Position numbers and translations under genes: made by a program. 64,000 bases of DNA from Patescibacteria group bacterium. GTDB taxonomy: Bacteria > Patescibacteriota > Patescibacteriia > UBA9934. The stretch spans positions 40,446 through 104,445 of the forward strand of contig JBBTSM010000001.1 in assembly GCA_038064675.1 (NCBI GenBank), read 5' to 3'. This document shows, piece after piece, positions 2,074 to 34,129 of this stretch. Each line of letters begins with the position of its first letter. Within the stretch, counting starts at the first letter, position 1. The notes under the pieces are model-generated. The model made no database searches. It worked only from the letters and a program-made list of their open reading frames with translations, and was not told the origin of the DNA.

Positions 2074-2085
2074 TATCTCTTTCTA

Positions 2086-2185
2086 TTCCGTCATTGCGAG
2101 GAGGGTAATCCCGACGCGGCAATCCAGATGAGCCTAGATTGCCACGTCGAGCGATTACGCTCTCCTCGCAATGACGGAGGTGAAT
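2086..2185 (+). repeat. Long imperfect inverted repeat (about 40-bp arms, loop CAGATGAGCCTAG) built from the same repeat module; hairpin/MITE-like element that probably also terminates mltG
   Basis: Left arm CCGTCATTGCGAGGAGGGTAATCCCGACGCGGCAATC. Right arm is its near reverse complement, GATTGCCACGTCGAGCGATTACGCTCTCCTCGCAATGACGG. Confidence 0.7.
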
Positions 2186-2198
2186 TGAACTCAACTCT

Positions 2199-3116: not shown

Positions 3117-3225
3117 AGTTGGTTTTGACGTTTTAACTTATTGGGGATAGTTTTTTCAATTTTCGGCTGATATAGTAAGATCACTGCGCTATTAAAGTGT
3201 TAATTGGGCGTAAGCTTTGGCTCCC

Positions 3226-3984: not shown

Positions 3985-6920
3985 AACAATTAGAATTACA
4001 TAACGCGATTGACGGGTTTTTCAGAAGCGATATCAAGCTAGCTAATCTTCAATTTGCGCAAAGTTTATTGCAGAATGAAGACTCGCGGCGTTATTTTTTC
4101 GACCAAGCCAATGAAGTATGGCTTCAATGGCTTTGGGATTTCGGATTTCTTGACGCGATTAAGGGAGGGGCGAATACCGCACCTAGAGGTGTATATCGGC
4201 TTCCCGAACTCGGCTACCTCGAGAAAATTTGTAAGATAAATCCGGTCGGAGTTTCAAAGATCATTGAATCGGTAGAGATTTCCGAAGACAATTGTAGTCC
4301 GGAAGTATTATTGAGTTTTTTAAGGATTATCGGGACTTTTCCGGTTGAACAAATTGTACCGCTCATCGATAAGATTCTATCGGAACGATGGGTTTATTTA
4401 ATGCGAGATTCAGATAGGTCGAGTTACGATTTTGAAGTGATTGTAAAAGTATTAGTGGAAAAGAAAGAGAGCGTTGGTTTGTTAAAGTTATCTCAAGCCC
4501 TTTTGACTTTAAAGGATGAGGACGATATACGAGCAAAAAACGGAGATTTTGGAAGAGACGATTTTTTCTGCGTCAAAGATATTGATGAGTCGGGTATTTT
4601 TAGTGCGCTTATTACTATTGATGAGCATTATTTAACTGCTGCACTTAAAGTTACTACGGATACCATGGCGGCTATCATTAAGATGTCAGAAGCAGATGAA
4701 GGGGGAGTCTTTGAGTATAAGGATGCATTTGGCTTATATGACGTTGATTTTTTTAATCTAGATTTTGAGGGTGGCCATACGGGCTCATATCGCGCGAATG
4801 AAAAAAACTTTGTTACAACTATAAAGGTTCTTGCCGAGAGTGAGATGAACAAGAAATCTACAGGCGACGAAGATAAGAGGTCTGTTCTTGATCTTATAGA
4901 TAATATTCCTTCGAGTCGTCTGGTGTGGAGATTGCGATTATTTGTGCTAGCGCAGCAACCTCTTTTGTTTAAGAGTGAACTTAAAGATTCGTTCTTTAGG
5001 TTGTTTGAAGGTAAAAATGATTACGATATAGAGGGTGGCGCAGAATACAAGCAAGCTTTAAAAATTTGTTTCCCCCTTTTAGACGAAGATGATCAACGGC
5101 TTTATGTTGCGAATGTCATAAATTATTTTGTAAAAAAAGCGAAAGATAATCCAGAACAGAAATGGCACAAACAAACCGGATATGAAATTCTTTCGACCGT
5201 TTTTGTTGATTTAAATGGAGCGGAGAAACAAAAGGCTGCAGAGGTTTTTGGAAAGGAATTAGATGCGGAATATGTTCCGGAGCCGTCAATCGGTCGAATG
5301 AGGTCCGGTACCGTCATATATCAAGCACCAGATGAATTAGAGAAATATACAATTAAAGAAATCATATCGAGATTAAAAACAAATTGGACGCCAGAAAGAT
5401 TATCTGAAGAGTTCAAGAGTGAAGATTATTTCCGGCCTAGAGGAGCCGAGGGGCTTTGCGAGTCTATAAAACAGGATGTAAAGAAGCGTACTGCTGACTA
5501 TCTCAATAATATTGAACTCTTCTTTGATCGTGAGAATATTCATCCTTCGTATATTCACTCATTGCTGCGCGGTATTGAAGAGATGCTCCGTAACGATCAG
5601 AGTCTTAGCTTTGAGCAAATCGAAAATGTATTTGGATTGTTCGGGCTGATAAAGATAAGTGGGGAGAGGGCGCCTTTTAAGGGTAGTGACGATAAGTCCT
5701 GGCTCGCAGATTGGATTGGGGTTCACAGTGTTGCTGTGGATGTTCTTCTTCACATTCTCAGAGATAAGACATACAGGGGGGAAAAGCATGAGGGTTCCCG
5801 TCCTTGGGTTCTTTCATTCCTTTCTTATCTCTTCACCGTTAATGGCAGCCCCTCAAGGGATGACGAAGGCCCTGAATCTAGTGAGCCGTATTCCGTCGCA
5901 ATCAATTCCGTACGAGGCAGGGCGTATGAGGCATTTGTTGTGTTGGTAGAGAACGACGGAAAGACACTAAGGGAAGATGTGAAGCCTGTATATCGAGCGA
6001 TACTTTGTGACGAATCCCTTGCGGTGAGGTTCGTCATTGGTCGCTATCTAGCCTCGTTTTATTTTCGTGACATTGATTTCGTTCGGGGTCTTTTTGCTGA
6101 AATCTTTCCTAAAGATGACTCAGAGAAAAAGGATATTTATCTCGCAAGTTGGGAGGGCTATCTTTCCAACGTTCTATACCAGAAGCTATTTATTGATCTC
6201 GGAAGCTTCTATGATCATGCGATAGCGCTGAGTCCCTCTGAATATACGAAGAGAAAATACTCAACCGGATTGGATGAGGCTCTAGGCGTGCATCTTGCGC
6301 TTGCATTTATCTACTTCGGGTTGGATATTGAAAATGATCCTTTGCTTGTTAAATTTTGGAGCATCGAGAATCCAAAAAGGCATCAGGAGTTTATATCGTT
6401 TATCGGTCGTACATGTTTGACTCAAGATGGTGCCGGGGACAGGTGGTTTAAAGAGAATAAGGTCGATAAAGAAAGACTGATAGCGTTTTGGAGCTGGGCG
6501 GTGGGGCATGTTACTGAGCCTGAAGCCTTGTCTGGTTTCGGTTTCTGGGTGAATCAGGATCACGAGATTCTGGATGACAGTTTTGTTGCAGAGAAGATGG
6601 CGGAGACACTCAAGAAATCAAATGGTGAAATAGATTGGGACTACGGTCTCTTGAGACGATTGCCGGCGCTTGCTGCAAAAAATAGTGATTCGACATTGGA
6701 GATCATTGAACATCTTCTGTTGGGTAACGATGGTAGGCTTAACCCAAATCGGCGTGTTCCATTCTTTAGTCTCGATGGAGAAATAAGAGAATCTCTTGGT
6801 GTAATTTATGACGGCAGTGATGCTGCAATGAAAGTAAGGGTTTCCGATCTGATTAGCAGACTTATTACAGAAGGTAGCAGCATGTTCTGGGGGTTGAAGG
6901 AGGTGATAAAGGAGGCTTAA
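3981..6920 (+). CDS. Large hypothetical protein (979 aa), predicted mostly alpha-helical, no recognisable catalytic motifs
   Basis: Long uninterrupted ORF with an AGGAG RBS at 3975-3979. Translationally coupled to the upstream gene. AT-rich codon usage unlike the surrounding genes. Confidence 0.6.
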   Translation: MKQLELHNAIDGFFRSDIKLANLQFAQSLLQNEDSRRYFFDQANEVWLQWLWDFGFLDAIKGGANTAPRGVYRLPELGYLEKICKINPVGVSKIIESVEISEDNCSPEVLLSFLRIIGTFPVEQIVPLIDKILSERWVYLMRDSDRSSYDFEVIVKVLVEKKESVGLLKLSQALLTLKDEDDIRAKNGDFGRDDFFCVKDIDESGIFSALITIDEHYLTAALKVTTDTMAAIIKMSEADEGGVFEYKDAFGLYDVDFFNLDFEGGHTGSYRANEKNFVTTIKVLAESEMNKKSTGDEDKRSVLDLIDNIPSSRLVWRLRLFVLAQQPLLFKSELKDSFFRLFEGKNDYDIEGGAEYKQALKICFPLLDEDDQRLYVANVINYFVKKAKDNPEQKWHKQTGYEILSTVFVDLNGAEKQKAAEVFGKELDAEYVPEPSIGRMRSGTVIYQAPDELEKYTIKEIISRLKTNWTPERLSEEFKSEDYFRPRGAEGLCESIKQDVKKRTADYLNNIELFFDRENIHPSYIHSLLRGIEEMLRNDQSLSFEQIENVFGLFGLIKISGERAPFKGSDDKSWLADWIGVHSVAVDVLLHILRDKTYRGEKHEGSRPWVLSFLSYLFTVNGSPSRDDEGPESSEPYSVAINSVRGRAYEAFVVLVENDGKTLREDVKPVYRAILCDESLAVRFVIGRYLASFYFRDIDFVRGLFAEIFPKDDSEKKDIYLASWEGYLSNVLYQKLFIDLGSFYDHAIALSPSEYTKRKYSTGLDEALGVHLALAFIYFGLDIENDPLLVKFWSIENPKRHQEFISFIGRTCLTQDGAGDRWFKENKVDKERLIAFWSWAVGHVTEPEALSGFGFWVNQDHEILDDSFVAEKMAETLKKSNGEIDWDYGLLRRLPALAAKNSDSTLEIIEHLLLGNDGRLNPNRRVPFFSLDGEIRESLGVIYDGSDAAMKVRVSDLISRLITEGSSMFWGLKEVIKEA

Positions 6921-7381: not shown

Positions 7382-8938
7382 ATGTTAGACATTAAGACTT
7401 TTCCATTTTCAGAAAGCGGCATCCAGCAAATGCGAAAGTCGCCAAATGCAATCGATTGGCCGATTGTGTATTTGATTGAAAACGGGAAGGATTTATATGT
7501 TGGCGAGACAATTCACGCGAGCGCGCGAACAAAGCAGCATCTTGAAAACCCAGAACGTAAAACATTGAAAACGATTCATGTCATTTCTGATGATGAATTT
7601 AATAAATCAGCAACTCTAGATGCAGAATCTTCGCTCATAGAATACTTTGCGGCTGATGGAAAGTATTCTCTTCAGAATGGGAATGGTGGATTACAAAATC
7701 ACGACTATTTTGATCGTGAAAAATACCAAGCAAAGTTTGAGGTTCTTTGGGAGAAGTTGCGAGAAATGCATATTGCGCAACATAGTCTTTTTCATATCCG
7801 TAATACTGATCTTTTTAAATATTCTCCGTACAAAACGCTTACAGATGATCAATACTTCTTGGCAACGTATCTTCTCGCCGATCTGACTGCGGATGTTGAG
7901 CGGAGATATCTTATTCATGGTGGTCCTGGAACGGGGAAAACGATTCTTGCAATCTATATTGTTAAGCAGCTCGTCGAACAAGGAAAAAAGAATGTTGCAC
8001 TGGTCATTGCGATGACTTCGTTGCGGAATACGCTAAAGAAAGTTTTTCGAGCAGTTCCTGGCCTCCGGTCAGACATGGTCATTGGACCAAATGATGTAAC
8101 AAAGCGTCACTACGATACGTTGATTGTTGATGAAGCTCACAGGCTTCGTCGAAGGAGAAATATCCCAAATTATGCATCGTTTGATCAGACCAATAAGCGA
8201 TTTGGATTAGGTACTGAAGGAACAGAATTGGATTGGATTTCTCGTTCCGCAAAACAAGTCATTTTGTTTTTTGATGAAAATCAATCGGTTCGACCGTCAG
8301 ATATTCCTGTTGAAGTTATAAAGAGCTCAGCAGAGACGCATTTCCGTTTAAGCGCACAAATTCGAGTGCAGGGCGGAGAGGAGTACATACATTTTGTTGA
8401 TAATATTCTTGAGGTAAAGCCGGCGGAATATGTGCAGGTCGCAAAATATGATTTTCAAATTTTTGAAGATATTTCTGAGATGATTCGCGAGTTGAAAGAA
8501 AAGGAAAAGATTCACGGTCTTTGTCGATTGGTCGCTGGATATGCTTGGGAGTGGGTTTCTCGGGACGATGCTAAGACGCCGGATATCATAATTGGCAATA
8601 CGAAGCTTTTTTGGAATAGCACAATTCAGGACTGGGTAAACTCTCCAAATGCCATAAATGAAGTTGGATGCATCCACACAATTCAGGGATATGATTTAAA
8701 TTATGCGGGAGTGATCGTTGGACCAGAAGTAACGTTTGACGCATCACGTAATTGTATAGTGATTAAGAAAGAAGAATATCGTGATGCCAACGGGTATCGT
8801 GGAATCGTAGATCAAGAAGAATTAAAGCGATACATCATTAATATTTACAAAACATTATTGACTCGGGGGATTCTGGGAACGTATGTCTATATCGTTGACC
8901 CCGATCTTCGAAGGTACTTTCAATCCACCCTTCGATAA
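7382..8938 (+). CDS. GIY-YIG nuclease domain fused to a DUF2075-type (Schlafen-like) P-loop ATPase/helicase
   Basis: N-terminal VYLIENGKDLYVGET...R..H (GIY-YIG-like). Walker A GGPGTGKT and Walker B LIVDEAHRL. DUF2075-like C-terminal region. Starts 2 nt after the MazG-like stop. Confidence 0.7.
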   Translation: MLDIKTFPFSESGIQQMRKSPNAIDWPIVYLIENGKDLYVGETIHASARTKQHLENPERKTLKTIHVISDDEFNKSATLDAESSLIEYFAADGKYSLQNGNGGLQNHDYFDREKYQAKFEVLWEKLREMHIAQHSLFHIRNTDLFKYSPYKTLTDDQYFLATYLLADLTADVERRYLIHGGPGTGKTILAIYIVKQLVEQGKKNVALVIAMTSLRNTLKKVFRAVPGLRSDMVIGPNDVTKRHYDTLIVDEAHRLRRRRNIPNYASFDQTNKRFGLGTEGTELDWISRSAKQVILFFDENQSVRPSDIPVEVIKSSAETHFRLSAQIRVQGGEEYIHFVDNILEVKPAEYVQVAKYDFQIFEDISEMIRELKEKEKIHGLCRLVAGYAWEWVSRDDAKTPDIIIGNTKLFWNSTIQDWVNSPNAINEVGCIHTIQGYDLNYAGVIVGPEVTFDASRNCIVIKKEEYRDANGYRGIVDQEELKRYIINIYKTLLTRGILGTYVYIVDPDLRRYFQSTLR

Positions 8939-9410: not shown

Positions 9411-9965
9411 ATGCTTCACGCCGAGCATATCCCGTACGTTCTTCGTCGCAAGCGCTTTTCGCGGGTGCTGCGGTTTGCGGTACATGCGGATGGACGGTTG
9501 GTGGTTACAGCACCAGTTCTCATCGGGAAGCGCACCATCGAAAAGATGATTGCGGAGAAGAGGGAATGGATTTTGGAGAAACTCGAGATTGCAAGAAAGA
9601 ACGCGAAGCCGGTGGCGCCGAAGAGGACGAAGAAGGAGATCGCCGATGATAAAGATCGCGCATTGGCGTTGATTCGAGATCGGATCGAGCATTTCAACCT
9701 TGTGTATCGATTATCGTGGAAACGGATTGCAATACGGAATCAGAAGACGAGATGGGGGAGTTGTTCGCGGAAGGGGAATTTGAATTTCAATTATAAGATT
9801 GCATTGTTGCCGCCGCATCTTGCGGACTACATCATCGTTCACGAACTCTGCCACTTGGCGCAGATGAATCATTCGAAAAAGTTTTGGGAACTGGTTGCGC
9901 AGACCATTCCAGATTGGCGAGGTCGGCGAAATGAGATTCGGGAGCACGAGATTCGATTGCGATGA
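9411..9965 (+). CDS. DUF45/YgjP-family (SprT/WLM-like) zinc metallohydrolase
   Basis: HExxH motif IIVHELCHLAQMNHS near the C-terminus. The family is typically about 180 aa. Confidence 0.7.
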   Translation: MLHAEHIPYVLRRKRFSRVLRFAVHADGRLVVTAPVLIGKRTIEKMIAEKREWILEKLEIARKNAKPVAPKRTKKEIADDKDRALALIRDRIEHFNLVYRLSWKRIAIRNQKTRWGSCSRKGNLNFNYKIALLPPHLADYIIVHELCHLAQMNHSKKFWELVAQTIPDWRGRRNEIREHEIRLR

Positions 9966-12659: not shown

Positions 12660-13808
12660 ATGTCCAATCACGACTACGCACAGCGTTCGATGGATGCGCA
12701 TAAGCTTCATGCCGGGAAATGGGCTATTACAAGCGTGATGCCGCTCGAAACTGCGGACGATTTGAGTATTGCGTACACGCCTGGAGTTGCTGCGCCGTGT
12801 TTGGCAATTGCGGCGGATCCGTTGGCTGCATATGATTTGACGATGAAAGGGCGCGCTGTTGCTGTTGTATCCGACGGATCGTCCGTGCTCGGGCTTGGCA
12901 ACATTGGCCCGATGGCGGGATTGCCAGTAATGGAAGGGAAAGCGGTATTGTATAAAAAGTACGCAAACATTGATGCGGTGCCGATCGTCCTTGCAAGTCA
13001 GAATGCGGACGAAATTATCGAGGCCGTGCGCATGATTGCACCAACATTTGGTGGAATTCATTTGGAAGACATTGCCGCACCGGCATGTTTCGAAATTGAA
13101 CAGCGGTTGAGCGAGATGCTCGACATCCCAGTCATGCACGACGATCAGCACGCAACAGCAATCGTTGCGCTTGCGGGGTTGATGAACGCGGCGAAAGTTG
13201 TTGGTCGATCGTTGGAATCCATGAACGTTGTGGTGAACGGTGCCGGTGCCGCGGGAATCGCTATCACATATCTGTTTATCGATGCCGGGGTTGCCAATGT
13301 GATTCTCGTCGATTCTAAGGGCGTTATTGGTCATCATCGATCTGACCTTTCGGGCCAGAAAGCGATCCTCGTTGCATTAACAAACACATATGGAGTGCAG
13401 GGCGGGCTCGCAGAAGCAATGCAGGGAACAGACGTGTTTGTTGGCGTAAGCAAGCCGAATCTTGTCTCGCAAGACATGGTGAAGTCTATGGCGCCAAATC
13501 CAATCATCTTCGCGCTCGCAAATCCGGTTCCAGAAATTGCGTACGACGACGCGAAGGCTGCCGGTGCTGCTGTCATCGCCACCGGGCGTAGTGATTATCC
13601 AAATCAAATCAACAATGTCCTTGTGTATCCAGGATTGTTCCGCGGATTGCTCAATCGCCGAGCAAGTAAGCTGACGAGTGTCATGAAAATTGCTGCCGCA
13701 ACGGCGTTGGCGGGTATGGTTCCAGAACCAACGGCAGAGAATATCATTCCAAGGATTATTGAGACGAATCCAGCGGAGGCAATTGCGAAAGCCATCGAAA
13801 GCGTATGA
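12660..13808 (+). CDS. NAD(P)-dependent malic enzyme (short, prokaryotic type)
   Basis: Malic enzyme motifs DDQHATAIV and VVNGAGAAGIA (Rossmann). Confidence 0.9.
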   Translation: MSNHDYAQRSMDAHKLHAGKWAITSVMPLETADDLSIAYTPGVAAPCLAIAADPLAAYDLTMKGRAVAVVSDGSSVLGLGNIGPMAGLPVMEGKAVLYKKYANIDAVPIVLASQNADEIIEAVRMIAPTFGGIHLEDIAAPACFEIEQRLSEMLDIPVMHDDQHATAIVALAGLMNAAKVVGRSLESMNVVVNGAGAAGIAITYLFIDAGVANVILVDSKGVIGHHRSDLSGQKAILVALTNTYGVQGGLAEAMQGTDVFVGVSKPNLVSQDMVKSMAPNPIIFALANPVPEIAYDDAKAAGAAVIATGRSDYPNQINNVLVYPGLFRGLLNRRASKLTSVMKIAAATALAGMVPEPTAENIIPRIIETNPAEAIAKAIESV

Positions 13809-14341
13809 GACAGCAAAGCTTCAGGCATCGTGGTGCGAAAAGCTCCGGAATCGGGGGAAGTATTTTGCTGATTATCGCAGCAGTGGTTGGAGTATTTGTG
13901 GTGTATCAACTTATTCTGTGGTTCCGTTCGAGTAGTGCAAAGACGATCGCGAACGATGTGGTTACCGCGGCGGTTGATACGGTTGATGCAAAAGCATCTT
14001 TGACGACGTCACTTAACAGTACTGCAGTGCTGAAGGTATCCGATGGGTCGTCGGCTGGAACTGTTGTGCGTTCGGGAACGGTAGAGGTGCCGTCGTACAG
14101 TCTTGTAGCGAATCTTGTTGCCCTTGCTCCAGATACGATGTACGAGGCATGGCTTGTGAAGGATGGCCTTGCCGACGTGAAGAGTGTTGGAGCGTTGAAC
14201 CCACGTGCGGACGGAAGTTGGGCCGCAACATTTAGCGCGAAAGATCCGTTGGACTATCCAACGATCGTCATCATGCTCGAGCCGAATGATGGGGATGCTG
14301 AGCCATCGGGGAACCGTATTGCTGAAGGAAGATTTGAATAA
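13805..14341 (+). CDS. Single-pass membrane protein with an extracytoplasmic anti-sigma-K factor RskA-like C-terminal domain
   Basis: N-terminal TM helix. YEAWLVKDG...G.LNPRADGSWAATF pattern resembles the RskA C-terminal domain. No sigma factor gene is adjacent. Confidence 0.4.
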   Translation: MRQQSFRHRGAKSSGIGGSILLIIAAVVGVFVVYQLILWFRSSSAKTIANDVVTAAVDTVDAKASLTTSLNSTAVLKVSDGSSAGTVVRSGTVEVPSYSLVANLVALAPDTMYEAWLVKDGLADVKSVGALNPRADGSWAATFSAKDPLDYPTIVIMLEPNDGDAEPSGNRIAEGRFE

Positions 14342-21089: not shown

Positions 21090-23087
21090 ATGAATCGTAC
21101 CGCGATTGGTGCATTTTTCCTTGTAGTGTTCGCTGTAGGCGCCGGTGTCCTGTCCTTTCCGAAAGAATGGAATGGTGCAATGGCTGCAATGAAGGACAAG
21201 GTAGGTTTTCACCTTCCGTATGTTCCGGAAAACGACTTTACCCTTGGTTTAGACCTGAAGGGCGGTGCACACTTGGTGTATGAGGCCGACATGTCGTCCA
21301 TCGACGAAGCTGAACGCGAAACCGCGCTTGGTGGAGTGCGCGATGTGGTGGAACGTCGTGTGAACGCATTCGGTGTTGCAGAACCAATTGTCCAAACGAA
21401 CATCGCCGACGGTCACTACCGTGTGTTGGTGGATCTTCCTGGCGTTACCGACGTGAAAGATGCAATTGCGCAGATTGGTGAAACGCCGGTGCTGGCCTTC
21501 CGTACGCCAATTACCGACGTGAGCACCACGCCAACTGCTGAACAGCAGCAGCAAATTGACGACGCGCAGAAGACTGAGCGTGTTGCTGCGCTTGCGGTGA
21601 TGGATCGCGCACTTGCCGGCGAAGACTTTGCAGCGCTCGCAAAAGAATATTCCATTGATGCAACCACTAAGGATATCGGCGGATATGTTGGGTTTGTTGT
21701 TGCCGACGACGCAGAATACGACGGGCTTGTGACACAGTTCGAAAAGGGCCGTACGAAGTTCGGTGTCGTCAATGGCTTGTACGAAGGCACAAGCACAATG
21801 CATATCGTGAAGTACATCAGCAAGAAAACAGAATCTGAGCCACGGATCTCACACATTCTCATTTGTTACGCTGGCGCTCCAAGCTGTACGCAGTCACGAA
21901 CAAAGGAAGAGGCACTCGCGCTTGCAACACAGCTTCAGGCAGAAGCAACAACAAAAAACTTTGCTGATTTGGCAAAAACGAATTCCGACGATGGTGGGAG
22001 CAAGGATGTTGGCGGAGACGTTGGATATGTTACGCGAGGCAAAATGGTGAAGCCATTTGAAGACGCCGCATATGCAACGCGCGATACCAAAATTTCCGCT
22101 GTGGTGGAATCAGAATATGGTTATCATATTTTGTATCGTGTCGGTTCCCGTCCATCACGTAGCTACGAAATTGCGCAGATCGAAATGCCTTGGACGACCG
22201 CATCTGACATTTTGACGGTGGATCCTTGGAAGAATACAGAACTTTCTGGAAAGGATGTGAAGCACGCATCGGTGGCGTTCGATCAGACTACTGGTGCGCC
22301 GTACATCGTGCTCGATTTCAATGAAAACGGTACGCAACTGTTCGGTGAACTCACAAAAGATAATGTTGGAAAAGTCATCGGCATTTTCTTGGACGGTCAG
22401 CCAATCACCACGCCTGTTGTTCAAGAGCCAATCTACGGCGGTCAGGCTTCTATCACTGGAAGCTTCACTATCGCTGAGGCGAAGCTGCTTGCACAGCGGT
22501 TGAACGCTGGAGCATTGCCAGTGCCAATTTCGGTGGTCAGCCAGCAGACTATTGGTCCAGCGCTTGGAACTGCATCGCTTGATCTGAGCGTGAAAGCGGG
22601 CCTCATCGGGTTCCTTCTTGTTGCGCTGTTCGTGATTGGATACTACCGCCTTCCTGGCGTGGTCGCCGTTGGTGCTCTTGGCGTATACGCCTTGATCAAC
22701 TTGGCGCTCTTCAAGATTCTCGGCGTTACCATCACCTTGTCTGGTATTGCTGGATTCATCTTCTCCCTGGGTATTGCGGTGGACGCGAACGTGCTCATCT
22801 TTGAGCGCCTGAAGGAAGAGCTTCGCAATGGTCGCGATCTCCCAACGGCAATGGAGGAAGCCTTCCGCCGTGCATGGCCTTCGATTCGCGACGGTAACGC
22901 AACGACGCTTATCGCGACCGGAATTCTGTACACGATGACATCTGGTTCGGTTCGTGGATTCGCGCTCACCTTGGCGCTTGGTGTGTTCGTGTCGTTGTTC
23001 TGCGCGTTCGTGGTGTCGCGCTTTGTTCTTCGTCGTCTTGCGCGTATGCCAAAACTGCGAAAGTCGTTCTTCTTCCTTGGTCTCTAA
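21090..23087 (+). CDS. secD: Protein translocase subunit SecD with two tandem parvulin-type PPIase domains inserted in the periplasmic P1 region
   Basis: N-terminal TM helix. P1-base motifs LGLDLKGGAHLVY and FLDGQPITTPVV. C-terminal 6-TM bundle. In between lie two PpiC-like domains (..FAALAKEYS.D...GGYVGF.., and HILICYAG...FADLAKTNSDDGGSKDVGGDVGYVTRGKMVKPFEDAAYA...EYGYHILYRV). Confidence 0.85.
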   Translation: MNRTAIGAFFLVVFAVGAGVLSFPKEWNGAMAAMKDKVGFHLPYVPENDFTLGLDLKGGAHLVYEADMSSIDEAERETALGGVRDVVERRVNAFGVAEPIVQTNIADGHYRVLVDLPGVTDVKDAIAQIGETPVLAFRTPITDVSTTPTAEQQQQIDDAQKTERVAALAVMDRALAGEDFAALAKEYSIDATTKDIGGYVGFVVADDAEYDGLVTQFEKGRTKFGVVNGLYEGTSTMHIVKYISKKTESEPRISHILICYAGAPSCTQSRTKEEALALATQLQAEATTKNFADLAKTNSDDGGSKDVGGDVGYVTRGKMVKPFEDAAYATRDTKISAVVESEYGYHILYRVGSRPSRSYEIAQIEMPWTTASDILTVDPWKNTELSGKDVKHASVAFDQTTGAPYIVLDFNENGTQLFGELTKDNVGKVIGIFLDGQPITTPVVQEPIYGGQASITGSFTIAEAKLLAQRLNAGALPVPISVVSQQTIGPALGTASLDLSVKAGLIGFLLVALFVIGYYRLPGVVAVGALGVYALINLALFKILGVTITLSGIAGFIFSLGIAVDANVLIFERLKEELRNGRDLPTAMEEAFRRAWPSIRDGNATTLIATGILYTMTSGSVRGFALTLALGVFVSLFCAFVVSRFVLRRLARMPKLRKSFFFLGL

Positions 23088-23994: not shown

Positions 23995-24051
23995 AAATTC
24001 CTCAGAATCAAAGCGAGCTCGAAAGGGCTCGTTTTGATTTGGTAACCTTTA

Positions 24052-24195
24052 CATCGCGAGCTGGTGGCTCGGATACATTCTTCTGCACTCCGCGCGAATC
24101 CCCTACGCTGCGACGTCTCGCTGATGCTCGACTGCAGCTGTGGGGCGGCGTGCTCGTTGGAAGAATGTATCCTCACCACTGGCGTTCGCGATGAC
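24052..24195 (+). repeat. Modular intergenic repeat, partial copy C (central body only); downstream of secF
   Basis: CATCGCGAGCTGGTGGCTCGGATACATTCTT...GTGCTCGTTGGAAGAATGTATCCTC.CCACTGGCG.TCGCGATG is collinear with 12436-12590. Confidence 0.8.
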
Positions 24196-24374
24196 TCGGT
24201 TCGACTTGGAGCGGCGTGCTATAATTCAACGGACAGGACTTCCTTATTTGAGGCTAGTTTCGATGAACGAGGAGCAAAGATCGCGAGGCGTACTTCACGG
24301 TACGTTGAGCGATTTTGCGACGAAGTGAGTCGAAAATAGACCAAATGAGGAAGTGCTAAAGGACTTTATCGCCT

Positions 24375-25865
24375 ATGATTGGCATCGCCATCCACCTCCC
24401 AAACGCTGTCGTGCACTACCTGAATGTCACGCCTTTTCCTCTCATGATGACGCAGGCATTGCTGCTCGTGGGTTGGGTTCCAATTCTTGGCGTGATTATT
24501 TGGGGTTTAACGCACATCTGGTTGGATTTTAAGCAAGGAATTTACAGCAAGTCCTTAAAATGGGTGCTTCTTGAGGTGAATGTTCCGCAGGACGCGATCA
24601 ATACGCCAAAAGGCATGGAGAACTTCTTCATGAACCTTTCAGGTGTGAAATCTGGCATTACCTGGCGCGAAATTTGGCTGCTTGGAAAAGAGCAGGCGTC
24701 GTTTAGTTTTGAAATCGTCAGCAACGAAGGGCGCATTCAGTTCCTCATCCGCACGATTGATAAATACCGTGATTTGGTTGAAGCGGCATTGTACGCACAG
24801 TATCCAGAAGCACAGTTCACGGAAGTTCCTGACTACGTCATGCAAATTCCAAAGGAATATCCAAACAATGAATACGACGTGTTTGGCGGTGAATTGGCGT
24901 TGTCGAATAAGTCGTATTTTCCAATCCGTACGTTCGAAGATTTTGAGCATCAGGGTGAGAAAGATTTTCGATTCAAGGATCCATTGCTGCCAATCATCGA
25001 AATGATGGGGAAAATGCGAGAGAAAGAGCACTACTGGATCCAGTTTGTTATTCGTCCGCCAGAGGATCAGCATTGGACGAAAGATGGTATCGCCTACTTG
25101 AACAAGATGATGGGCAAGGAGGAGAAGCATAAGCCGGGGTTCATGGATTCTTTGTCGGAGAACGCGCTGTGGCTTCCAAAGGGTATCGCGTCGCAGTTGA
25201 TTGGTTTTGGTGGCGCTCCGGGCGACCATAAGGAAGAAAAGAAGGACGACTTCCGTATGTTCCGCATGACGCCGCAGGAACGATTGATGCTCGATGCTGT
25301 GGCAGAAAAGATTTCCAAAGTTGGCTGGAAAACAAAGATTCGTTACTTATATGCCGGTCCAAAAACTGCGTTCCGTAAGGGATTGATGGCGAGTTCTATG
25401 AAGGGCATGTGGGCAGTATTTACGAACCAGAATCTCAATGGATTAAGTTTGCACGGTCCTGCCGTGCCAAAGGACGATTACTTCTGGCAAGCATGGCAGA
25501 TGCCGCAGAAACAAAAGAACCTTGTTTCTCGATTCCAGCGTCGTAGTGGTGGCGAAGGTGGAAGTTGGCAAATGTTGAATACCGTGGAGCTCGCAACGCT
25601 CTTTCACTTCCCAGCGGCAGATGCGCGTACGCCGGTGCTTTCTACCACCGGAGCCCGTCGTGCTGAAGCGCCAAGTACATTGCAGGTCGCGATGCACGAC
25701 GAACCGCAGCTTCAGAATTGGAAGCTTCAGAATGCGGATGCCAAGGAAGAAGAGCGCGTCCAAAGTCTTCCTATTGCTCCGCTCAGCGTTCCAACGCCAG
25801 TGTCTCCTACTGAACATACGTTGCCGCATGAGCCCGACGATGTTCCGCCGAATCTCCCGATGTAA
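24375..25865 (+). CDS. Hypothetical membrane protein (two N-terminal TM helices plus a large soluble domain); probable partner of the downstream ATPase
   Basis: Its stop is 6 nt before the ATPase start. No recognisable motifs. Confidence 0.55.
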   Translation: MIGIAIHLPNAVVHYLNVTPFPLMMTQALLLVGWVPILGVIIWGLTHIWLDFKQGIYSKSLKWVLLEVNVPQDAINTPKGMENFFMNLSGVKSGITWREIWLLGKEQASFSFEIVSNEGRIQFLIRTIDKYRDLVEAALYAQYPEAQFTEVPDYVMQIPKEYPNNEYDVFGGELALSNKSYFPIRTFEDFEHQGEKDFRFKDPLLPIIEMMGKMREKEHYWIQFVIRPPEDQHWTKDGIAYLNKMMGKEEKHKPGFMDSLSENALWLPKGIASQLIGFGGAPGDHKEEKKDDFRMFRMTPQERLMLDAVAEKISKVGWKTKIRYLYAGPKTAFRKGLMASSMKGMWAVFTNQNLNGLSLHGPAVPKDDYFWQAWQMPQKQKNLVSRFQRRSGGEGGSWQMLNTVELATLFHFPAADARTPVLSTTGARRAEAPSTLQVAMHDEPQLQNWKLQNADAKEEERVQSLPIAPLSVPTPVSPTEHTLPHEPDDVPPNLPM

Positions 25866-25871
25866 TTCGCT

Positions 25872-27863
25872 ATGCGCTACGAACACGACCACGAGAAGGA
25901 CATTGTCTATTTTGGCCAAACCAACTTCCGCAATCAAATGCGGAGGTTTGGCATTAAAACCGATGATCGCCGTCGCCACATGTACATTGTGGGAAAAACG
26001 GGTATGGGAAAAACGGTACTTCTCGAAAACATGATTCTTGCGGATATTTACGCTGGCCACGGCTGTGCGTACATCGATCCGCACGGAGACACAGTTCAAA
26101 AGATTCTCGACTATATTCCATCGTGGCGCATTAACGACGTGGTGTATTTCAATCCAGCGGACGGTGATTTTCCTGTTGCGTTCAACATGTTGGAGAAAAC
26201 GGAGGGTTGGGAGAACGTAAAGGATTACAACGCAAAGGTCATGTATGGGCTTCTTTCGATTTTTAAGAAGGTGTGGGAGAACGTGTGGAGTGCCCGCATG
26301 GAATACATTCTGCAGTACACGATTCTTGCGTTGCTTGATACTCCAGGCACGACGCTGCTTGGTATCAACCGCATGCTGTCCGATAAGGAATATCGCACAG
26401 AGATCGTCCAAAACGTGAAGGATCCAATGGTTCAGGCATTTTGGTTGAAGGAATTTGCGCAGTACGACGTAAAATTTGCCGCAGAGGCTTCCGCGCCAAT
26501 TCAAAACAAGGTTGGTCAATTTCTCGCATCAACGATGATGCGAAACATTGTTGCGCAATCAAAATCGTCGTTCAACTTCCGCGAAGTGATGGATGGACAG
26601 AGGATTCTGCTCATCAACCTGTCGAAAGGTCAGATTGGTGAGGACGCGATGCGTATTCTTGGTGGTATGTTGATTACAAAAATCTACATGTCTGCCATGG
26701 AACGCGTGAATATTCGCGACGAAAACGAGCGCGTAGATTTTTATTTGTACGTTGATGAATTCCAGAACTTTGCCACGGAATCGTTTGCGGACATTTTGTC
26801 AGAAGCTCGAAAATATCGTCTCAATCTCATTATCGCCCATCAGTACATCGCTCAGCTTGATAGCATGACGTCTACCGCAGTTCGGGATGCGGTGTTCGGT
26901 AACGTCGGAACAATGATTACGTTCCGTATTGGTGCGAAGGATGCAGAATTCTTGGAAAGTGAGTTCATGCCTCGATTCACGCCAGAGGATCTTATCAACC
27001 TTGCAAAGTGGAATATCTATTTGAAACTGATGATTGATGGTGTGAGTAGCCAGCCGTTCTCTGCAGCGACGCTTCCGCCAATCGGTCAGCGAACGGGAAG
27101 TGAGGAAAAGGTCATCGAACAATCACGTGAACGATTTGGTGGAAATCGGAAGATGATTGAGGAACATGTGATGACATGGAGCGGATTTAATCCAGATCTC
27201 GATGTTGGCGAAGCGTTTGCAAAGGTTGCTGCAGAAAAGAAAGAAGCGAAGAAGGCCCGATTCGCTCACGAGTACACCTGTGCTCGTTGTGGAAAATTAT
27301 TTACGTTGCCAGTGGAGCTTGATAAGAGCCGTCCAATCTACTGCGACGATTGTCATGCCCTCATGGTGGAAGAGCGGAAGAAGAAGGGATCATCGAAGCC
27401 ACCGCAAGGAAAGCAATACCCACCTGAGCCACCGAAGATATCGGCGAGCGAAATGGTTGTTATTCCCACGCCTGGAGAGGCATTACTAGAATCGTTACCG
27501 CCGCGACCCGAGGCTCCGCCGGCTCCTGAGGCTCTCGTCGCCGATCGCACCGAACTCAAAAGTACACCGAACGACGGCCATACGCATAAGCTTGTTCCTG
27601 TCGTTCCTCCTGCGCCCCGACCACAGCCTGCGCCGTCGATTCCTCGGTCTGCAGCTTCGGCGCCAACCGTGCCTACTGCAGAGGGTCAGCCGGCAAAGAA
27701 AAAGCGTCGTCGAAAAAAGAAGTCGTCTGGACTTGGTTCATCGATGTCGCCAATCCCGGTGCCTGTGCCAAAGCCAGCACAAGATCCTGTTGCTGCGGCG
27801 ATGTCTGCCGGACCGGTTCCAACCCCTGTCGCTCCTGGCGAGCGAATCAGTTTCGATTCATAA
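25872..27863 (+). CDS. TraD/VirD4-like (type IV coupling protein family) P-loop ATPase with a C-terminal C4 zinc ribbon and a Pro/Ala-rich basic tail
   Basis: Walker A YIVGKTGMGKT. Walker B LYVDEFQNF. Zinc ribbon CARCGKLFTLPVELDKSRPIYCDDCH. KKKRRRKKK tail. Confidence 0.75.
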   Translation: MRYEHDHEKDIVYFGQTNFRNQMRRFGIKTDDRRRHMYIVGKTGMGKTVLLENMILADIYAGHGCAYIDPHGDTVQKILDYIPSWRINDVVYFNPADGDFPVAFNMLEKTEGWENVKDYNAKVMYGLLSIFKKVWENVWSARMEYILQYTILALLDTPGTTLLGINRMLSDKEYRTEIVQNVKDPMVQAFWLKEFAQYDVKFAAEASAPIQNKVGQFLASTMMRNIVAQSKSSFNFREVMDGQRILLINLSKGQIGEDAMRILGGMLITKIYMSAMERVNIRDENERVDFYLYVDEFQNFATESFADILSEARKYRLNLIIAHQYIAQLDSMTSTAVRDAVFGNVGTMITFRIGAKDAEFLESEFMPRFTPEDLINLAKWNIYLKLMIDGVSSQPFSAATLPPIGQRTGSEEKVIEQSRERFGGNRKMIEEHVMTWSGFNPDLDVGEAFAKVAAEKKEAKKARFAHEYTCARCGKLFTLPVELDKSRPIYCDDCHALMVEERKKKGSSKPPQGKQYPPEPPKISASEMVVIPTPGEALLESLPPRPEAPPAPEALVADRTELKSTPNDGHTHKLVPVVPPAPRPQPAPSIPRSAASAPTVPTAEGQPAKKKRRRKKKSSGLGSSMSPIPVPVPKPAQDPVAAAMSAGPVPTPVAPGERISFDS

Positions 27864-29589: not shown

Positions 29590-30033
29590 ATGACCGACGA
29601 CGAAAAAATCCAGCTTGGCGCGGTGCTCGAAATCGTCCAGTCCATGCAGAAGACCATGGTCGCAATGCAGGATGATATTGGGGCAATTCAGGGCGTTATG
29701 GCCACGAAGGATGATCTCAAGAATTTCGCCACGAAAGATGACCTTAAGAATTTTGCTACGAAAGGCGACCTTAAGAATTTTGCCACGAAGGATGACGTTA
29801 CTGATATTCGGGGCGATATTGCGGCCATTAAGGAAGATGTTGAGTTCCTTAAAGACAGTGTGGCTACGAAGGATGATCTCGGCAGTCTCAAATCCGAGGT
29901 TTTCGAACACATCGATGGCTTTGCGCAGCAGAACCAGAAGTTCGATATCGAGTTGGTTGCGGCAAGGTCCCAGTTCAATCGGGTAGAAGAACGTGTGGAG
30001 GTTTTAGAATTGAAAGCGGGGATTGGGGCGTAA
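29590..30033 (+). CDS. Small coiled-coil protein with 9-aa tandem repeats (ATKDDLKNF x3+)
   Basis: ORF with three and a half perfect 27-bp DNA repeats at 29701-29808. Confidence 0.5.
   Translation: MTDDEKIQLGAVLEIVQSMQKTMVAMQDDIGAIQGVMATKDDLKNFATKDDLKNFATKGDLKNFATKDDVTDIRGDIAAIKEDVEFLKDSVATKDDLGSLKSEVFEHIDGFAQQNQKFDIELVAARSQFNRVEERVEVLELKAGIGA
29701..29808 (+). repeat. 27-bp in-frame tandem repeat (3.5 units)
   Basis: GCCACGAAGGATGATCTCAAGAATTTC / GCCACGAAAGATGACCTTAAGAATTTT / GCTACGAAAGGCGACCTTAAGAATTTT / partial unit. Confidence 0.9.
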
Positions 30034-30898: not shown

Positions 30899-33800
30899 AT
30901 GTCAGCATCTATTGTGAAGGAGGGCGCAGTGAAAACGAACGACGCGGATGTCACATCTGCCGTCTACGGCTACATGACGTCGGTGAAGGAAGTGATTAAA
31001 CGCGATGGAACGCATGCGGCGTTTTCTTCGGAGAAGCTCGAGCGTTCAGTGATCCAATCATTGATCGCGGCAGGATTTAAAGAAAAAGATCTTCCACGCT
31101 ACGTGAATCGTATTACTGGAAATATTCTTTCCCGTATCCAGCGACGATTCGATGGCCATACCACGCCAACGTCGGGAATTATTCGAGAAATGGTCGCGGT
31201 CGCTCTTATCGACAATAACCTCGTGCACGTTGCTCGCATCTACTTGTCCTATCGAAAATCTGATGTCGTTGTTGCTGCTGAGCAGTACGGAAAGGGTATC
31301 TCGATGGATCGGTATTTCACCAAGGAAGGTGTTCACCCATACGATCTTTTGAAATGGGAAAAGCGCACCGCAAGTATCACGAATGAAAAGGGGGCAGTTG
31401 TTTTTGAACAAAAGGATATTGAAGTGCCAAGCACGTGGAGTCAAACATCAGTGAACATCGTTGCGCAGAAGTATTTCCGCGGAAAAGTCGGTACACCGGA
31501 GCGCGAAACGTCCATGAAGCAGCTCATGAGCCGCGTTGCCGTCACGATGGCGAACTGGGGTCGTAAGGACGGCTATTTTGCAACGAAGAATGATGCACAG
31601 GTGTTTGAGGATGAATTGACCTGGATTTTGGTAAATCAAATGGCGGCATTTAACTCGCCAGTGTGGTTTAACGTTGGTATCAATCCGCATCCGCAGTGTT
31701 CAGCGTGTTTCATCAACAGTGTTGAGGATGACATGCGTTCGATTCTTCATCTCACCGCCACAGAGAGCATGTTGTTCAAGCAAGGCTCTGGAACCGGATC
31801 AAACCTTTCGAACCTCCGTTCCACACAGGAATATCTTGGTGGAAGCAATGGCCGATCATCAGGTCCAGTGAGCTTTATGAAGGGTCTCGATTCCTTCGCG
31901 GGTATTGTGAAGTCTGGCGGAAAGACCCGCCGTGCCGCAAAAATGGTGATTTTGAACGTCGGCCACCCAGACATCATGACGTTCATTGAGTGTAAAGCAA
32001 AAGAGGAGCGCAAGGCTTGGACGTTGGTAGATGCTGGCTACGATAGTGGCATGGACGGCGAAGCATATGGATCTATCTACTTCCAGAACGCAAACAACTC
32101 GGTGCGTGTGACGGATGACTTTATGCGTGCGGTGGAAATGGATGGTGAATGGGTAACGCACGAGGTAACGACGGGCAAGCCATCTTTGACGTACAAGGCA
32201 CGTGATGTGATGCGCAGTATGGCGGAATGTGCATGGCAGTGCGGCGATCCTGGTATTCAGTACGATACGACGAGCAACCGCTGGCACACGTCAAAGAACA
32301 CGGGCCGCATCAACGCGAGCAACCCATGTTCCGAATACATGTTCTTGGACGACACCGCATGTAACTTGTCGTCGCTCAACTTGATGAAGTTCCGCAAGGA
32401 AGTGAATGGCGTCATGGAATTTGATGTCCCTTCTTTCATTCGTGCAGCAAAGGTGATGATCACGGCGATGGAAATTACGGTCGGAAATTCGAGCTACCCA
32501 ACGCCATCCATTGAGCAGAATAGCCACGACTTCCGCCCACTCGGCATTGGTTTCGCAAACCTTGGTGCGCTCTTGATGAGCCGCGGCGTTGCGTACGATT
32601 CTGACGAAGGTCGCAACATCGCTGGTGGAATTATGTCGTTGCTTTCGGGCTGTACGTACGAACAGAGCGCACATATTGCAGAGAAGATTGGCGCGTTTAC
32701 CGGCTTCGAGCTGAACAAAGAGCCATGTATGGAAGTGATGCGCATGCATCGCGACGCAACATACGCGATGAATCTTGAGGCATTGCCGGCAGACATTGCT
32801 GCTGCTGCGCGAACCGCGTGGGACAACGTTGTTACAGAAGGCGACAAGCACGGTTTGCGCAATGCACAGATTTCCGTGCTCGCGCCAACAGGAACCATCG
32901 CGTTTTTAATGGACTGTGATACCACAGGAATTGAACCAGACATCGCCATCGTCAAATACAAGTGGTTAGTGGGTGGCGGTATGCTCAAGATGGTGAACCA
33001 GACGGTTCCAGAAGCATTGACGCGTTTGAACTACAGTGCAGACGAGCGCAAGGCGATCCTCGAATTTATCGACAAGCAAGACACCATCGAAGGCGCACCA
33101 TTCGTAAAACCTGAGCATCTCCCTGTCTTTGATTGCGCGTTTAAGGCGAAGAACGGTGTTCGTTCGATTCACTATATGGGCCATCTTCGTATGATGGCTG
33201 CCGTGCAGCCGTTTATTTCTGGCGCAATCAGCAAAACGGTAAACATGCCAAACGAGGCAACGGTTGAAGAGATTGAAAGGGTGTACATGGAAGGCTGGAA
33301 GATGGGCTTGAAAGCGATCGCCATTTATCGCGATGGCAGCAAGCGTCAGCAGGCGCTCACCACAAGTAAGGAAAAGGATTCGGGAAAGATGAACGCGGAT
33401 TTGAAGGCTGAGGGCAAAGGGCAAGGGGCAGAGGTTTCAACGGTGAAAGTTGCTCCGATTGCGGAAAACGTAAACGCACCACGTCGTCGTCGCTTGCCAG
33501 ATGAGCGTCGTGCAATTAACCACAAGTTCTTGGTTGGTGGGCACAAGGGATTCATTACGGTTGGGTTGTACGACGACGGCACGCCAGGCGAGATGTTCAT
33601 TACCATGGCGAAGGAAGGATCCGTGATCAGCGGTTTGATGGATGCATTCGCGACATCCATCTCCATCGGTTTGCAGTACGGTGTGCCAATTCAGGTGCTC
33701 GTAAACAAGTTCGTACACATGCGCTTTGAGCCATCCGGATTCACGAACAATCCAAACATTCGCATCGCAAAATCCATCGTGGACTACATCTTCCGCTGGA

Positions 33801-34129
33801 TGGCACTCAAGTTCCTTTCGCCACAGGAGCAGATCGCTGTCGGCATCAACGTCGTTCCAGCAATCGGCGATTCCATCGTTGCCGATCGCGCAACGGATTC
33901 TGCGGTATCTCCAGCACAGGCCACGGAGCTCCAGCCAACCATCTTCGCTACAGCTTCAGACGCAAACCCAGCGATGACTCCTGGCACAGCGCCACAGAAA
34001 TCATCCCTCACCTCCACCTTCAACAACACCGCCGACGCTCCAGCCTGCGACACCTGCGGCAACATCATGGTGCGCAACGCAGCGTGCTACAAATGCTTGA
34101 ACTGCGGCAGCACGAGCGGATGCTCCTGA
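30899..34129 (+). CDS. nrdJ: Class II (adenosylcobalamin-dependent) ribonucleotide reductase with an N-terminal ATP-cone and a C-terminal zinc ribbon
   Basis: ATP-cone VIKRDGTHAAFSSEKL. Active-site block NPCSEYMFLDD. C-terminal CDTCGNIMVRNAACYKCLNCG. Start codon uncertain (ATG at 30899 or 30974). Confidence 0.85.
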   Translation: MSASIVKEGAVKTNDADVTSAVYGYMTSVKEVIKRDGTHAAFSSEKLERSVIQSLIAAGFKEKDLPRYVNRITGNILSRIQRRFDGHTTPTSGIIREMVAVALIDNNLVHVARIYLSYRKSDVVVAAEQYGKGISMDRYFTKEGVHPYDLLKWEKRTASITNEKGAVVFEQKDIEVPSTWSQTSVNIVAQKYFRGKVGTPERETSMKQLMSRVAVTMANWGRKDGYFATKNDAQVFEDELTWILVNQMAAFNSPVWFNVGINPHPQCSACFINSVEDDMRSILHLTATESMLFKQGSGTGSNLSNLRSTQEYLGGSNGRSSGPVSFMKGLDSFAGIVKSGGKTRRAAKMVILNVGHPDIMTFIECKAKEERKAWTLVDAGYDSGMDGEAYGSIYFQNANNSVRVTDDFMRAVEMDGEWVTHEVTTGKPSLTYKARDVMRSMAECAWQCGDPGIQYDTTSNRWHTSKNTGRINASNPCSEYMFLDDTACNLSSLNLMKFRKEVNGVMEFDVPSFIRAAKVMITAMEITVGNSSYPTPSIEQNSHDFRPLGIGFANLGALLMSRGVAYDSDEGRNIAGGIMSLLSGCTYEQSAHIAEKIGAFTGFELNKEPCMEVMRMHRDATYAMNLEALPADIAAAARTAWDNVVTEGDKHGLRNAQISVLAPTGTIAFLMDCDTTGIEPDIAIVKYKWLVGGGMLKMVNQTVPEALTRLNYSADERKAILEFIDKQDTIEGAPFVKPEHLPVFDCAFKAKNGVRSIHYMGHLRMMAAVQPFISGAISKTVNMPNEATVEEIERVYMEGWKMGLKAIAIYRDGSKRQQALTTSKEKDSGKMNADLKAEGKGQGAEVSTVKVAPIAENVNAPRRRRLPDERRAINHKFLVGGHKGFITVGLYDDGTPGEMFITMAKEGSVISGLMDAFATSISIGLQYGVPIQVLVNKFVHMRFEPSGFTNNPNIRIAKSIVDYIFRWMALKFLSPQEQIAVGINVVPAIGDSIVADRATDSAVSPAQATELQPTIFATASDANPAMTPGTAPQKSSLTSTFNNTADAPACDTCGNIMVRNAACYKCLNCGSTSGCS

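Follow-up and report, generated by a model that had tools for sequence, protein, structure and literature searches.

A DUF8128 membrane protein and a soluble coupling protein-like ATPase form a two-gene unit in Patescibacteria

An adjacent gene pair for a membrane protein and a soluble ATPase

In a 64,000-nucleotide (nt) stretch of a Patescibacteria group genome (contig JBBTSM010000001.1 of assembly GCA_038064675.1, positions 40,446 to 104,445; hereafter the window), two adjacent open reading frames (ORFs) encode a membrane protein of the family DUF8128 (protein A) and a soluble ATPase that resembles type IV coupling proteins (T4CPs; protein B). A preliminary description of this locus had placed a gene for 496 amino acids (aa) 6 nt upstream of the ATPase gene, and both ORFs were confirmed at 24375-25865 and 25872-27863, with a junction that reads TAA TTCGCT ATG. 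The window derives from a Candidatus Uhrbacteria chromosome; proteins identical or 96% identical to those of the pair were found under the labels Patescibacteria group and Candidatus Uhrbacteria. The features of the pair, in positions of the window, are as follows (TM, transmembrane; pLDDT, predicted local distance difference test).

24375..25865, + strand: ORF A, bitopic membrane protein of the family DUF8128 (PF26449), 496 aa (ORF list; PF26449 precomputed on homologs)
24441..24524, + strand: single TM helix of A, aa 23-50 (hydropathy, maximum of 2.19 in a 19-residue Kyte-Doolittle window; long helix at residues 21-60 in the AlphaFold2 model)
24549..25682, + strand: cytoplasmic DUF8128 domain of A, aa ~59-436, alpha/beta, with a predicted fold like that of the VirB4 N-terminal domain
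25587-25682, + strand: conserved motif ELATLFHFPAADARTPVLSTTGARRAEAPSTL closing the DUF8128 domain
25683..25862, + strand: Pro-rich, disordered extension at the C-terminus of A, with PPNLPM as its last residues (pLDDT mostly <50)
25872..27863, + strand: ORF B, soluble VirD4/VirB4-clade ATPase (T4CP-like), 663 aa
25959..27071, + strand: nucleotide-binding domain of B with helical insert, aa ~30-400
25992-26015, + strand: Walker A of B, G41KTGMGKT48, within RRRHMYIVGKTGMGKT
26742-26771, + strand: Walker B of B, Y291LYVDEFQNF300
26802-26822, + strand: EARKYRL motif of B
27279..27356, + strand: CxxC-x17-CxxC zinc ribbon of B, C470ARCGKLFTLPVELDKSRPIYCDDCH495 (Pfam zf_Tbcl_2)
27360..27860, + strand: disordered Pro/Lys-rich tail of B, 167 residues (low pLDDT, composition)
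27696-27722, + strand: basic patch KKKRRRKKK of the tail, aa 609-617
27834-27860, + strand: terminal motif PGERISFDS of B

Protein A had been described as a membrane protein, which is true of its one TM helix but not of the remaining ~440 residues, which are soluble. Because a Lys-rich flank lies on the C-terminal side of the helix, the large domain is assigned to the cytoplasm. With only one TM helix, A could be ruled out as a polytopic membrane protein or a channel protein. The family PF26449 is precomputed on all 120 listed homologs of A (some of them 97% identical), and no family was obtained when A itself was scanned with the local Pfam library. Among 1.84 billion cluster representatives, a profile search detected 2,493 DUF8128 clusters (50% identity) at E<=1e-3; the name was not mentioned in the literature searched. 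At the end of the Pro-rich extension, P491, N493, L494, and P495 are nearly invariant.

Protein B carries both Walker motifs (A and B) of the preliminary description, and residues G41, K42, T43, G44, G46, K47, D295, and E296 are invariant in an alignment of 43 family sequences, so that B is probably an active ATPase. As had also been recognized, it contains no TM segment (the best 19-residue Kyte-Doolittle window reaches 1.06) and hence lacks, within the same polypeptide, the N-terminal TM domain typical of T4CPs; the TM helix sits on A. B does have another attribute of T4CPs, namely intact Walker A and B motifs in a RecA-like domain with an all-alpha insert. Three Pfam models of T4CPs recognize it above their cut-offs: TrwB_AAD_bind (PF10412, 42.5 bits, cut-off 20.5), T4SS-DNA_transf (PF02534, 34.3 bits, cut-off 20.1), and TraG-D_C (PF12696, 31.7 bits, cut-off 22). 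Its top NCBIfam matches are TraD and VirD4-like CD1115 (E 1e-9 to 1e-14), whereas the VirB4 models TIGR00929 VirB4_CagE (14.1 bits, cut-off 643) and VirB4_plasma (16.2 bits, cut-off 590) score far lower, and the FtsK_SpoIIIE and HerA/DUF87 models remain under their cut-offs. Among solved T4CPs, DotL (5e-5) and TrwB (6.5e-5) were matched by phmmer, with similarity confined to the P-loop and the surroundings of Walker B.

An AlphaFold model of B was built from the 43-sequence alignment (mean pLDDT 63; residues 50-320 good, residues 325-400 poor, tail disordered). In fold comparison it scored highest with the VirB4 C-terminal domain (4ag5, 19.1), the DptH C-domain (19.0), TrwB (18.5), and DotL (17.9), followed by Cag-beta (15.4), HerA (13.8), TcpA (9.4), and FtsK (9.1). 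Taken together, the fold scores and the family scores place B in the VirB4/VirD4 branch of the HerA-FtsK superfamily, and not with the FtsK or HerA proteins themselves.

The CxxC...CxxC ribbon and the basic, Pro-rich tail noted before are located at residues 470-495 and 501-663, the latter containing 36 Pro, 15 Lys, and the basic patch. The ribbon matches zf_Tbcl_2 just above its cut-off (27.8 bits versus 27) and TIGR04272 (CxxC-x17-CxxC) at 27.8 bits, below the 36-bit cut-off of that model; its four Cys residues are all invariant, and it bears a weak likeness to the RpoP/ABC10-alpha ribbons of RNA polymerase. The terminal motif was found again as PG[EQ]R[IV]xF in distant relatives. In classical T4CPs, substrates or adaptors are bound by extensions at the C-terminus (TraD-TraM, DotL-IcmSW), and by this analogy a docking role for the ribbon and tail of B is plausible; nucleic acid binding by them is possible.

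Conservation and fusion of the two genes

Scanning species-representative genomes with a profile of A gave 79 loci, labelled as Uhrbacteria, Moraniibacteria, Parcubacteria, or Saccharibacteria, and many as metagenome-assembled genomes (MAGs) of 'uncultured Gammaproteobacteria' that are obviously mislabelled; three more loci were added (82 in all). Among the 79 of the 82 loci that reach far enough 3' of A to be informative, a B homolog immediately follows A in 78, at identities down to 26% for A and 46% for B, and the upstream gene is thus almost always conserved with the ATPase. The sole exception (locus L080, a Parcubacteria MAG, A at 2057-3301) has a DUF8128 gene with no ATPase behind it; there A stops exactly at the conserved 'AEAPANLPV' motif, and the ORFs that come next appear MltG/YceG-like and MnmA-like, by eye from their translations.

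At loci L081 and L082, a single ORF encodes both parts. The protein of L082 (797 aa) consists, in this order, of the TM helix, the DUF8128 domain, '...LEIPANLPV', and '...RRRHMYLIGKTGTGKS...YLYVDEFQNF'. PF26449 is present on all 120 listed homologs of this protein (649-1007 aa), and in 119 of them a T4CP-type or DUF87 ATPase family lies on the same chain; the organisms named among them include Dojkabacteria (WS6) and Doudnabacteria. One-protein fusions were observed in Dojkabacteria-like lineages, Actinobacteria, and Bacillaceae. In the fused relatives the ATPase comes after the DUF8128 domain, with no extra TM segment between them, and the fusion junction coincides with the conserved end of DUF8128 ('ARRAEAP..L/NLP'), the NLP motif of the A extension forming the junction in L082. 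The split between the two genes therefore falls in a linker.

The pairing and the fusions show that A and B are one unit, and we infer that A binds B, with the split located in the linker after the conserved '...ARRAEAP..NLP' motif. The earlier idea of a split coupling protein is borne out by the clade of the ATPase, by the pairing, and by the fusions in other lineages, and the proposed role of A as a membrane anchor agrees with its TM helix; A is, however, more than an anchor, since it also has a conserved 380-aa cytoplasmic domain with a predicted VirB4 N-terminal-domain-like fold. The zinc ribbon is a property of the split form: it was detected in every one of the 56 complete B proteins of this form, but neither in the fused L082 protein nor on the Pfam lists of the fused forms.

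Related modules in type IV secretion clusters of other prokaryotes

Relatives outside Patescibacteria were sought on plasmids by tblastn with residues 1-450 of B (600 records). On the Embleya plasmid NZ_CP108778, B matches the C-terminal half of an 812-aa fused T4CP (WP_331738717), whose gene is flanked by genes for PrgI (VirB3-like) and a VirB4-like ATPase on one side and by Replic_Relax and NlpC/P60 genes on the other. The N-terminal 400 residues of this T4CP, which start with a TM segment and then RRRR, are homologous to DUF8128, and the same arrangement of an N-terminal TM segment and a DUF8128-like domain is found in Streptomyces T4CPs. When a 261-sequence DUF8128 profile was compared with three actinobacterial N-domains by hhalign, they aligned over 313 columns (Prob 96.2%, E 2.2e-9) with ELAxLxHxP..DA.P.L..GAR as the motif in common, whereas a reversed sequence gave E 0.41 and about 45 unrelated ORFs of the same loci all gave E of at least 0.14. 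Detection required this broad profile and hhalign; hmmsearch with a narrow Uhrbacteria-only profile missed the actinobacterial N-domain.

A split form was observed on Haloterrigena and Haladaptatus plasmids, where a separate 'hypothetical' gene of 350-399 aa lies between a large upstream gene (annotated as 'conjugal transfer protein' in Haloterrigena and as 'hypothetical' in Haladaptatus) and a B-like ATPase gene. Its product is DUF8128-like (E 2.3e-11 in Haloterrigena and 6.6e-13 in Haladaptatus), and the split module of Haloterrigena pHTS138 comprises WP_204749458 and WP_204749459. On both the haloarchaeal and the actinobacterial plasmids, the DUF8128 and ATPase module stands beside VirB4- and PrgI-type genes. 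DUF8128-like genes are also carried by Priestia and Pontibacillus megaplasmids (E 9.4e-23 and 6.6e-24), and that of Pontibacillus is near a Mbov_0395 pilin-like conjugal-transfer gene and a DUF87 ATPase gene. These contexts in Actinobacteria, haloarchaea, and Bacillaceae indicate that, in monoderm and archaeal type IV secretion system (T4SS) clusters, the module occupies the place of the coupling protein and is their second ATPase. Such an origin fits the nesting of Patescibacterial T4SSs within the MPF-FATA class (Quinonero-Coronel et al., PMC12102498).

The known systems closest to A-B are these DUF8128-linked T4CP modules of monoderm and archaeal T4SS clusters, for example those of Embleya and Haloterrigena. 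They resemble A-B in having the same two parts in the same order, in fused and split versions, with DUF8128 homology at E 2e-9 to 7e-24 and ATPases whose identity to B is 28-31% (E 2e-41 to 1e-61) across >90% of the motor. They differ in context, since on plasmids or chromids they have genes for VirB4, PrgI, relaxase-like proteins, and cell-wall hydrolases as neighbors whereas A-B stands alone among housekeeping genes, and in that B also has the zinc ribbon and basic tail. No experimental study of DUF8128-linked T4CP relatives was found in the literature searched.

The closest plasmid relative of B (37% identity, E 9e-87) is an orphan 395-aa ATPase encoded beside transposases on a plasmid of the alphaproteobacterium Sulfitobacter mediterraneus (NZ_CP081110, 6986-8173). 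It has no DUF8128 partner and offers no functional clue; a cross-phylum transfer is possible.

Predicted fold of DUF8128 and comparison with known systems

The AlphaFold model of A (pLDDT 74; predicted template modeling score, pTM, 0.65) consists of a helix at residues 21-60, an alpha/beta region to about residue 410, and a disordered C-terminus. With this model as the Foldseek query, the best 13 matches were all TrwK chains (probability 0.93-1.00), at global TM-scores (here a measure of structural similarity) of about 0.3. Apart from the leading match, all scores of the fold search were <=6.3. Since no P-loop protein was listed, the match must be to the N-terminal domain of VirB4. The cytoplasmic domain of A is therefore predicted to resemble the VirB4 N-terminal domain, and this should be treated as a result at the level of fold. 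A profile search of the Protein Data Bank with A gave a best E of 1.4, to an unrelated protein, and the DUF8128 profile gave hhalign E values of at least 0.2 with the VirB4-like proteins of Embleya, haloarchaea, and pGO1 (TrsE) and with TrsD, TrsJ, and TrsK (0.22 for pGO1 TrsD).

Compared with VirB4 (TrwK of R388 and the C-terminal domain of Thermoanaerobacter VirB4), A would correspond to the N-terminal and B to the C-terminal domain, and the fused relatives appear to reproduce the domain order and size of VirB4; on the other hand, the N-domain has no match at sequence level (TrsE and TrsD included) and the VirB4 family models score far below cut-off. It might be considered whether the pair is a paralog of the VirB4-type assembly ATPase that energizes T4SS or pilus assembly instead of coupling substrates, given that A and B together would make up the complete series of VirB4 domains (an N-terminal domain followed by the ATPase) and that the fused relatives, with 750-1000 aa as large as VirB4, also match AAA_10 and DUF87. 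However, the sequence families favor a T4CP (TraD and CD1115 over VirB4_CagE), DUF8128 shares no profile similarity with VirB4 or TrsD sequences, and a separate VirB4-like gene adjoins the module in the actinobacterial and haloarchaeal clusters, which implies that the module fills the second-ATPase (T4CP) slot. We regard a VirB4-type paralog as quite unlikely.

Classical T4CPs such as TrwB of R388, DotL, and Cag-beta differ from A-B in that a single chain carries the ATPase and two N-terminal TM helices and that DUF8128 is missing; their sequences resemble that of B only around the P-loop and Walker B (phmmer E ~6e-5), and their partners are relaxases or effector adaptors. Closer in concept is the TraJ-TraI pair of pIP501 (class iii in the scheme of Llosa and Alkorta), a soluble coupling ATPase with a separately encoded membrane partner (PMC12857230, PMC7431656), so that the classification of T4CPs already holds TM-less coupling proteins that may be paired with another membrane protein. 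By its description, TraI is unlike A: it is small, is predicted to have two TM domains, and lacks a large cytoplasmic domain. A much weaker likeness connects A-B with EccE and EccC of type VII secretion, which differ in ATPase clade and secretion system. Descriptions of the partnership between A-type DUF8128 proteins and an ATPase, of A-B fusions, of the homology of DUF8128 to N-domains of actinobacterial, Bacillaceae, and haloarchaeal T4CPs, and of a VirB4 N-terminal-domain-like fold of DUF8128 were not found in the literature searched.

Possible role of the pair and its relation to type IV secretion

Considering the above results, the explanation that we favor, as a reasonably probable one, is that a single membrane-anchored ATPase of the T4CP kind is divided between A and B and serves in trans as the motor for a T4SS encoded elsewhere. 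The pair itself can be described as a monoderm-type T4CP that is split over two genes and fixed in the chromosome, with DUF8128 as its N-terminal half. In such a mechanism, the single TM helix of A would tether the cytoplasmic DUF8128 domain, with its putative VirB4 N-terminal-domain-like fold, to the membrane, and A would hold B, the motor (presumably a hexamer, by analogy with TrwB and VirB4), at the cytoplasmic face. B would hydrolyze ATP and present a substrate to a translocation channel, most simply that of the phylum's own T4SS. A-B might thus act in trans as substrate receptor and motor of the chromosomal MPF-FATA-type T4SS, with a substrate that would be something other than a relaxase-bound plasmid; the ribbon and the basic disordered tail, gained here, would probably provide a platform for binding substrates or adaptors.

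The preliminary description had considered DNA uptake, export, or segregation to be more likely than conjugation. This preference is not supported in that form, because relatives of the module in Actinobacteria and haloarchaea reside inside T4SS clusters and, in most Patescibacteria, another part of the genome encodes a chromosomal MPF-FATA-type T4SS (PMC12102498); an in-trans coupling role is at least as likely as uptake, export, or segregation.

A probable ortholog is encoded in Southlakia epibionticum (Saccharimonadia). SEML1_0293 is a 921-aa protein flagged as a T4SS DNA-binding-domain protein, with the trio PF10412, PF12696, and PF01935 starting from residue ~402, and its gene is located downstream of the essential sigma-factor gene SEML1_0294. 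These domain coordinates are as in the fused forms, and a sigma-70-like gene likewise lies upstream in more distant relatives of A-B (L066 and L071-L080); SEML1_0293 is therefore a probable fused ortholog of A-B, as judged from domain coordinates and synteny alone.

Several observations weigh against a coupling role in trans. The likeness of A to VirB4 depends on a moderately confident AlphaFold model (pLDDT 74) and is not visible in sequence profiles. Neighbors of the pair with a family assignment are housekeeping genes, and, in agreement with the preliminary description, Pfam and NCBIfam scans of the 51 larger ORFs of the window identified no T4SS, relaxase, or pilus family. In Patescibacteria at large, only 148 of the 5,713 VirD4-like T4CP homologs, which occur in 2,918 of 3,035 genomes, lie near virB4, and the module is physically uncoupled from it; VirB4 was found in fewer genomes (2,417), so that a T4SS-independent role is allowed, and relaxases are almost absent (PMC12102498). 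Finally, transposon sequencing (Tn-seq) in Southlakia showed the T4SS to be essential and SEML1_0293 non-essential, while a different ATPase with TraM recognition, SEML1_0142, is essential.

Some of these observations also favor an autonomous translocase, that is, an A-B complex that, with no T4SS involved, would transport DNA or RNA along the cytoplasmic membrane or through it in uptake, export, or segregation, the ribbon and tail holding the nucleic acid. In nearly all genomes the module lies apart from virB4, T4CP homologs are present in more genomes than VirB4 is (PMC12102498), and the Southlakia ortholog is dispensable where the T4SS is essential. Moreover, the ribbon and the KKKRRRKKK tail are invariant among split forms, and a cultivated member of Patescibacteria takes up host RNA by a machinery that is not known (bioRxiv 10.64898/2026.06.21.733656). 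However, each A subunit has one TM helix and no recognizable channel protein accompanies the pair, all non-Patescibacterial homologs with informative context sit in T4SS clusters, and fused forms have no ribbon, so nucleic acid binding by the ribbon cannot be the core function. An autonomous translocase thus appears rather unlikely, though it deserves consideration.

The authors of PMC12102498 noted that exaptation 'cannot be ruled out'. Exaptation of the ancestral T4SS coupling protein into a T4SS-independent, chromosomally fixed two-part motor for nucleic acid at the membrane, in a phylum that depends on macromolecules of its hosts, is in our assessment unlikely. Were it true, the pair might import host-derived RNA or DNA, or export nucleic acid, with the ribbon and basic tail as the grip, and, as a corollary of the VirB4-like N-domain, this clade would preserve the ancestral full-length architecture behind VirB4 and VirD4.

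A-B is not a new type of system or machine; the advance is in annotation and evolution. Patescibacteria account for a large share of bacterial diversity, and one or two 'orphan' ATPases of T4CP-like character are retained in nearly every member (PMC12102498). To one of these a partner and an origin can now be attached, with DUF8128 as the missing N-terminal half of the coupling protein, and A plus B becomes a named complex to test for macromolecule exchange between epibiont and host. For evolution, the results hint that the entire architecture of VirB4 is common to some coupling proteins, a point of relevance to the history of both T4SS ATPases.

Genomic setting and other features of the window

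By family scan, the upstream neighbors of the pair are a SpoU methyltransferase and SecD-SecF, and the downstream neighbors are UppP, an S-adenosylmethionine-dependent (SAM) methyltransferase, and an RNase H-like protein. Another upstream ORF, outside the family scan, we take by eye from its sequence to be Tgt. No significant family match was obtained for 10 of the 51 scanned ORFs. Rfam detected nothing in the window apart from one tRNA, and promoter-like and terminator-like sites around the pair were not above chance.

SecD-SecF lies directly 5' of A in 64 of the 82 loci, down to 33% identity of A, which might suggest that the module aids protein export or membrane-protein handling together with SecDF. 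However, this link is absent from the loci labelled Moraniibacteria and Saccharibacteria and from every non-Patescibacterial homolog, and in several loci a sigma-70-like gene intervenes between SecF and A. Because the wider neighborhood is also syntenic, simple conservation of gene order explains the adjacency, and a Sec-linked function is highly improbable. In the more distant relatives mentioned above (L066 and L071-L080), the gene immediately 5' of A is of the sigma-70-like/HARE-HTH type. In the window, SecF and A are separated by 380 nt (23995-24374) with no Rfam match and no promoter-like site above chance; this gap may be a trace of a lost sigma-70-like/HARE-HTH gene. SecD itself (21090-23087) contains a PpiC-type peptidyl-prolyl isomerase (Rotamase) domain inserted at aa ~238-350, between P1 subdomains, an architecture that also occurs in the related loci L001-L003.

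A further consideration is anti-phage defence, as B matches mad8 of the MADS defence system at E 3e-16 (PADLOC) and could in principle be an ATPase of the HerA/DptH/MADS type. A has no PADLOC match, though, and no nuclease or other effector partner was observed; the scanned neighbors include no restriction or DNA-modification family, the nearby methyltransferases being SpoU-type and PF10672-type. The context is conserved and of housekeeping character, and the gene is highly conserved and present in nearly all genomes of the phylum. A scan of IMG/VR viral contigs with two peptide patterns found no relative, which also leaves a phage origin with no support. Based on the PADLOC result and the genomic context, a defence system is very unlikely, and we give it the least credence among the explanations considered.

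Elsewhere in the window, the GC content falls to 0.41-0.46 between ~4000 and 10000 (about 0.52 elsewhere). This stretch encodes a 979-aa ORF with no family match (3981-6920), a Schlafen-group-3/DUF2075-type helicase (7382-8938), and a YgjP-like metallopeptidase (9411-9965), after which comes a UvrD helicase; it is possibly an acquired island, perhaps for defence. A 178-aa ORF (13805-14341) gave a weak match to an anti-sigma factor model (NF052375, 36 bits versus a cut-off of 100). Downstream of the pair, a 1076-aa ORF (30899-34129), outside the family scan, is by eye from its sequence presumably a class II-type ribonucleotide reductase, with a Cys-rich ribbon at its end (CDTCGNIMVRNAACYKCLNCGSTSGCS). 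Near-perfect tandem peptide repeats (KDDLKNFATKDDLKNFATKGDLKNFATKDD) characterize a 147-aa ORF with no family match at 29590-30033.

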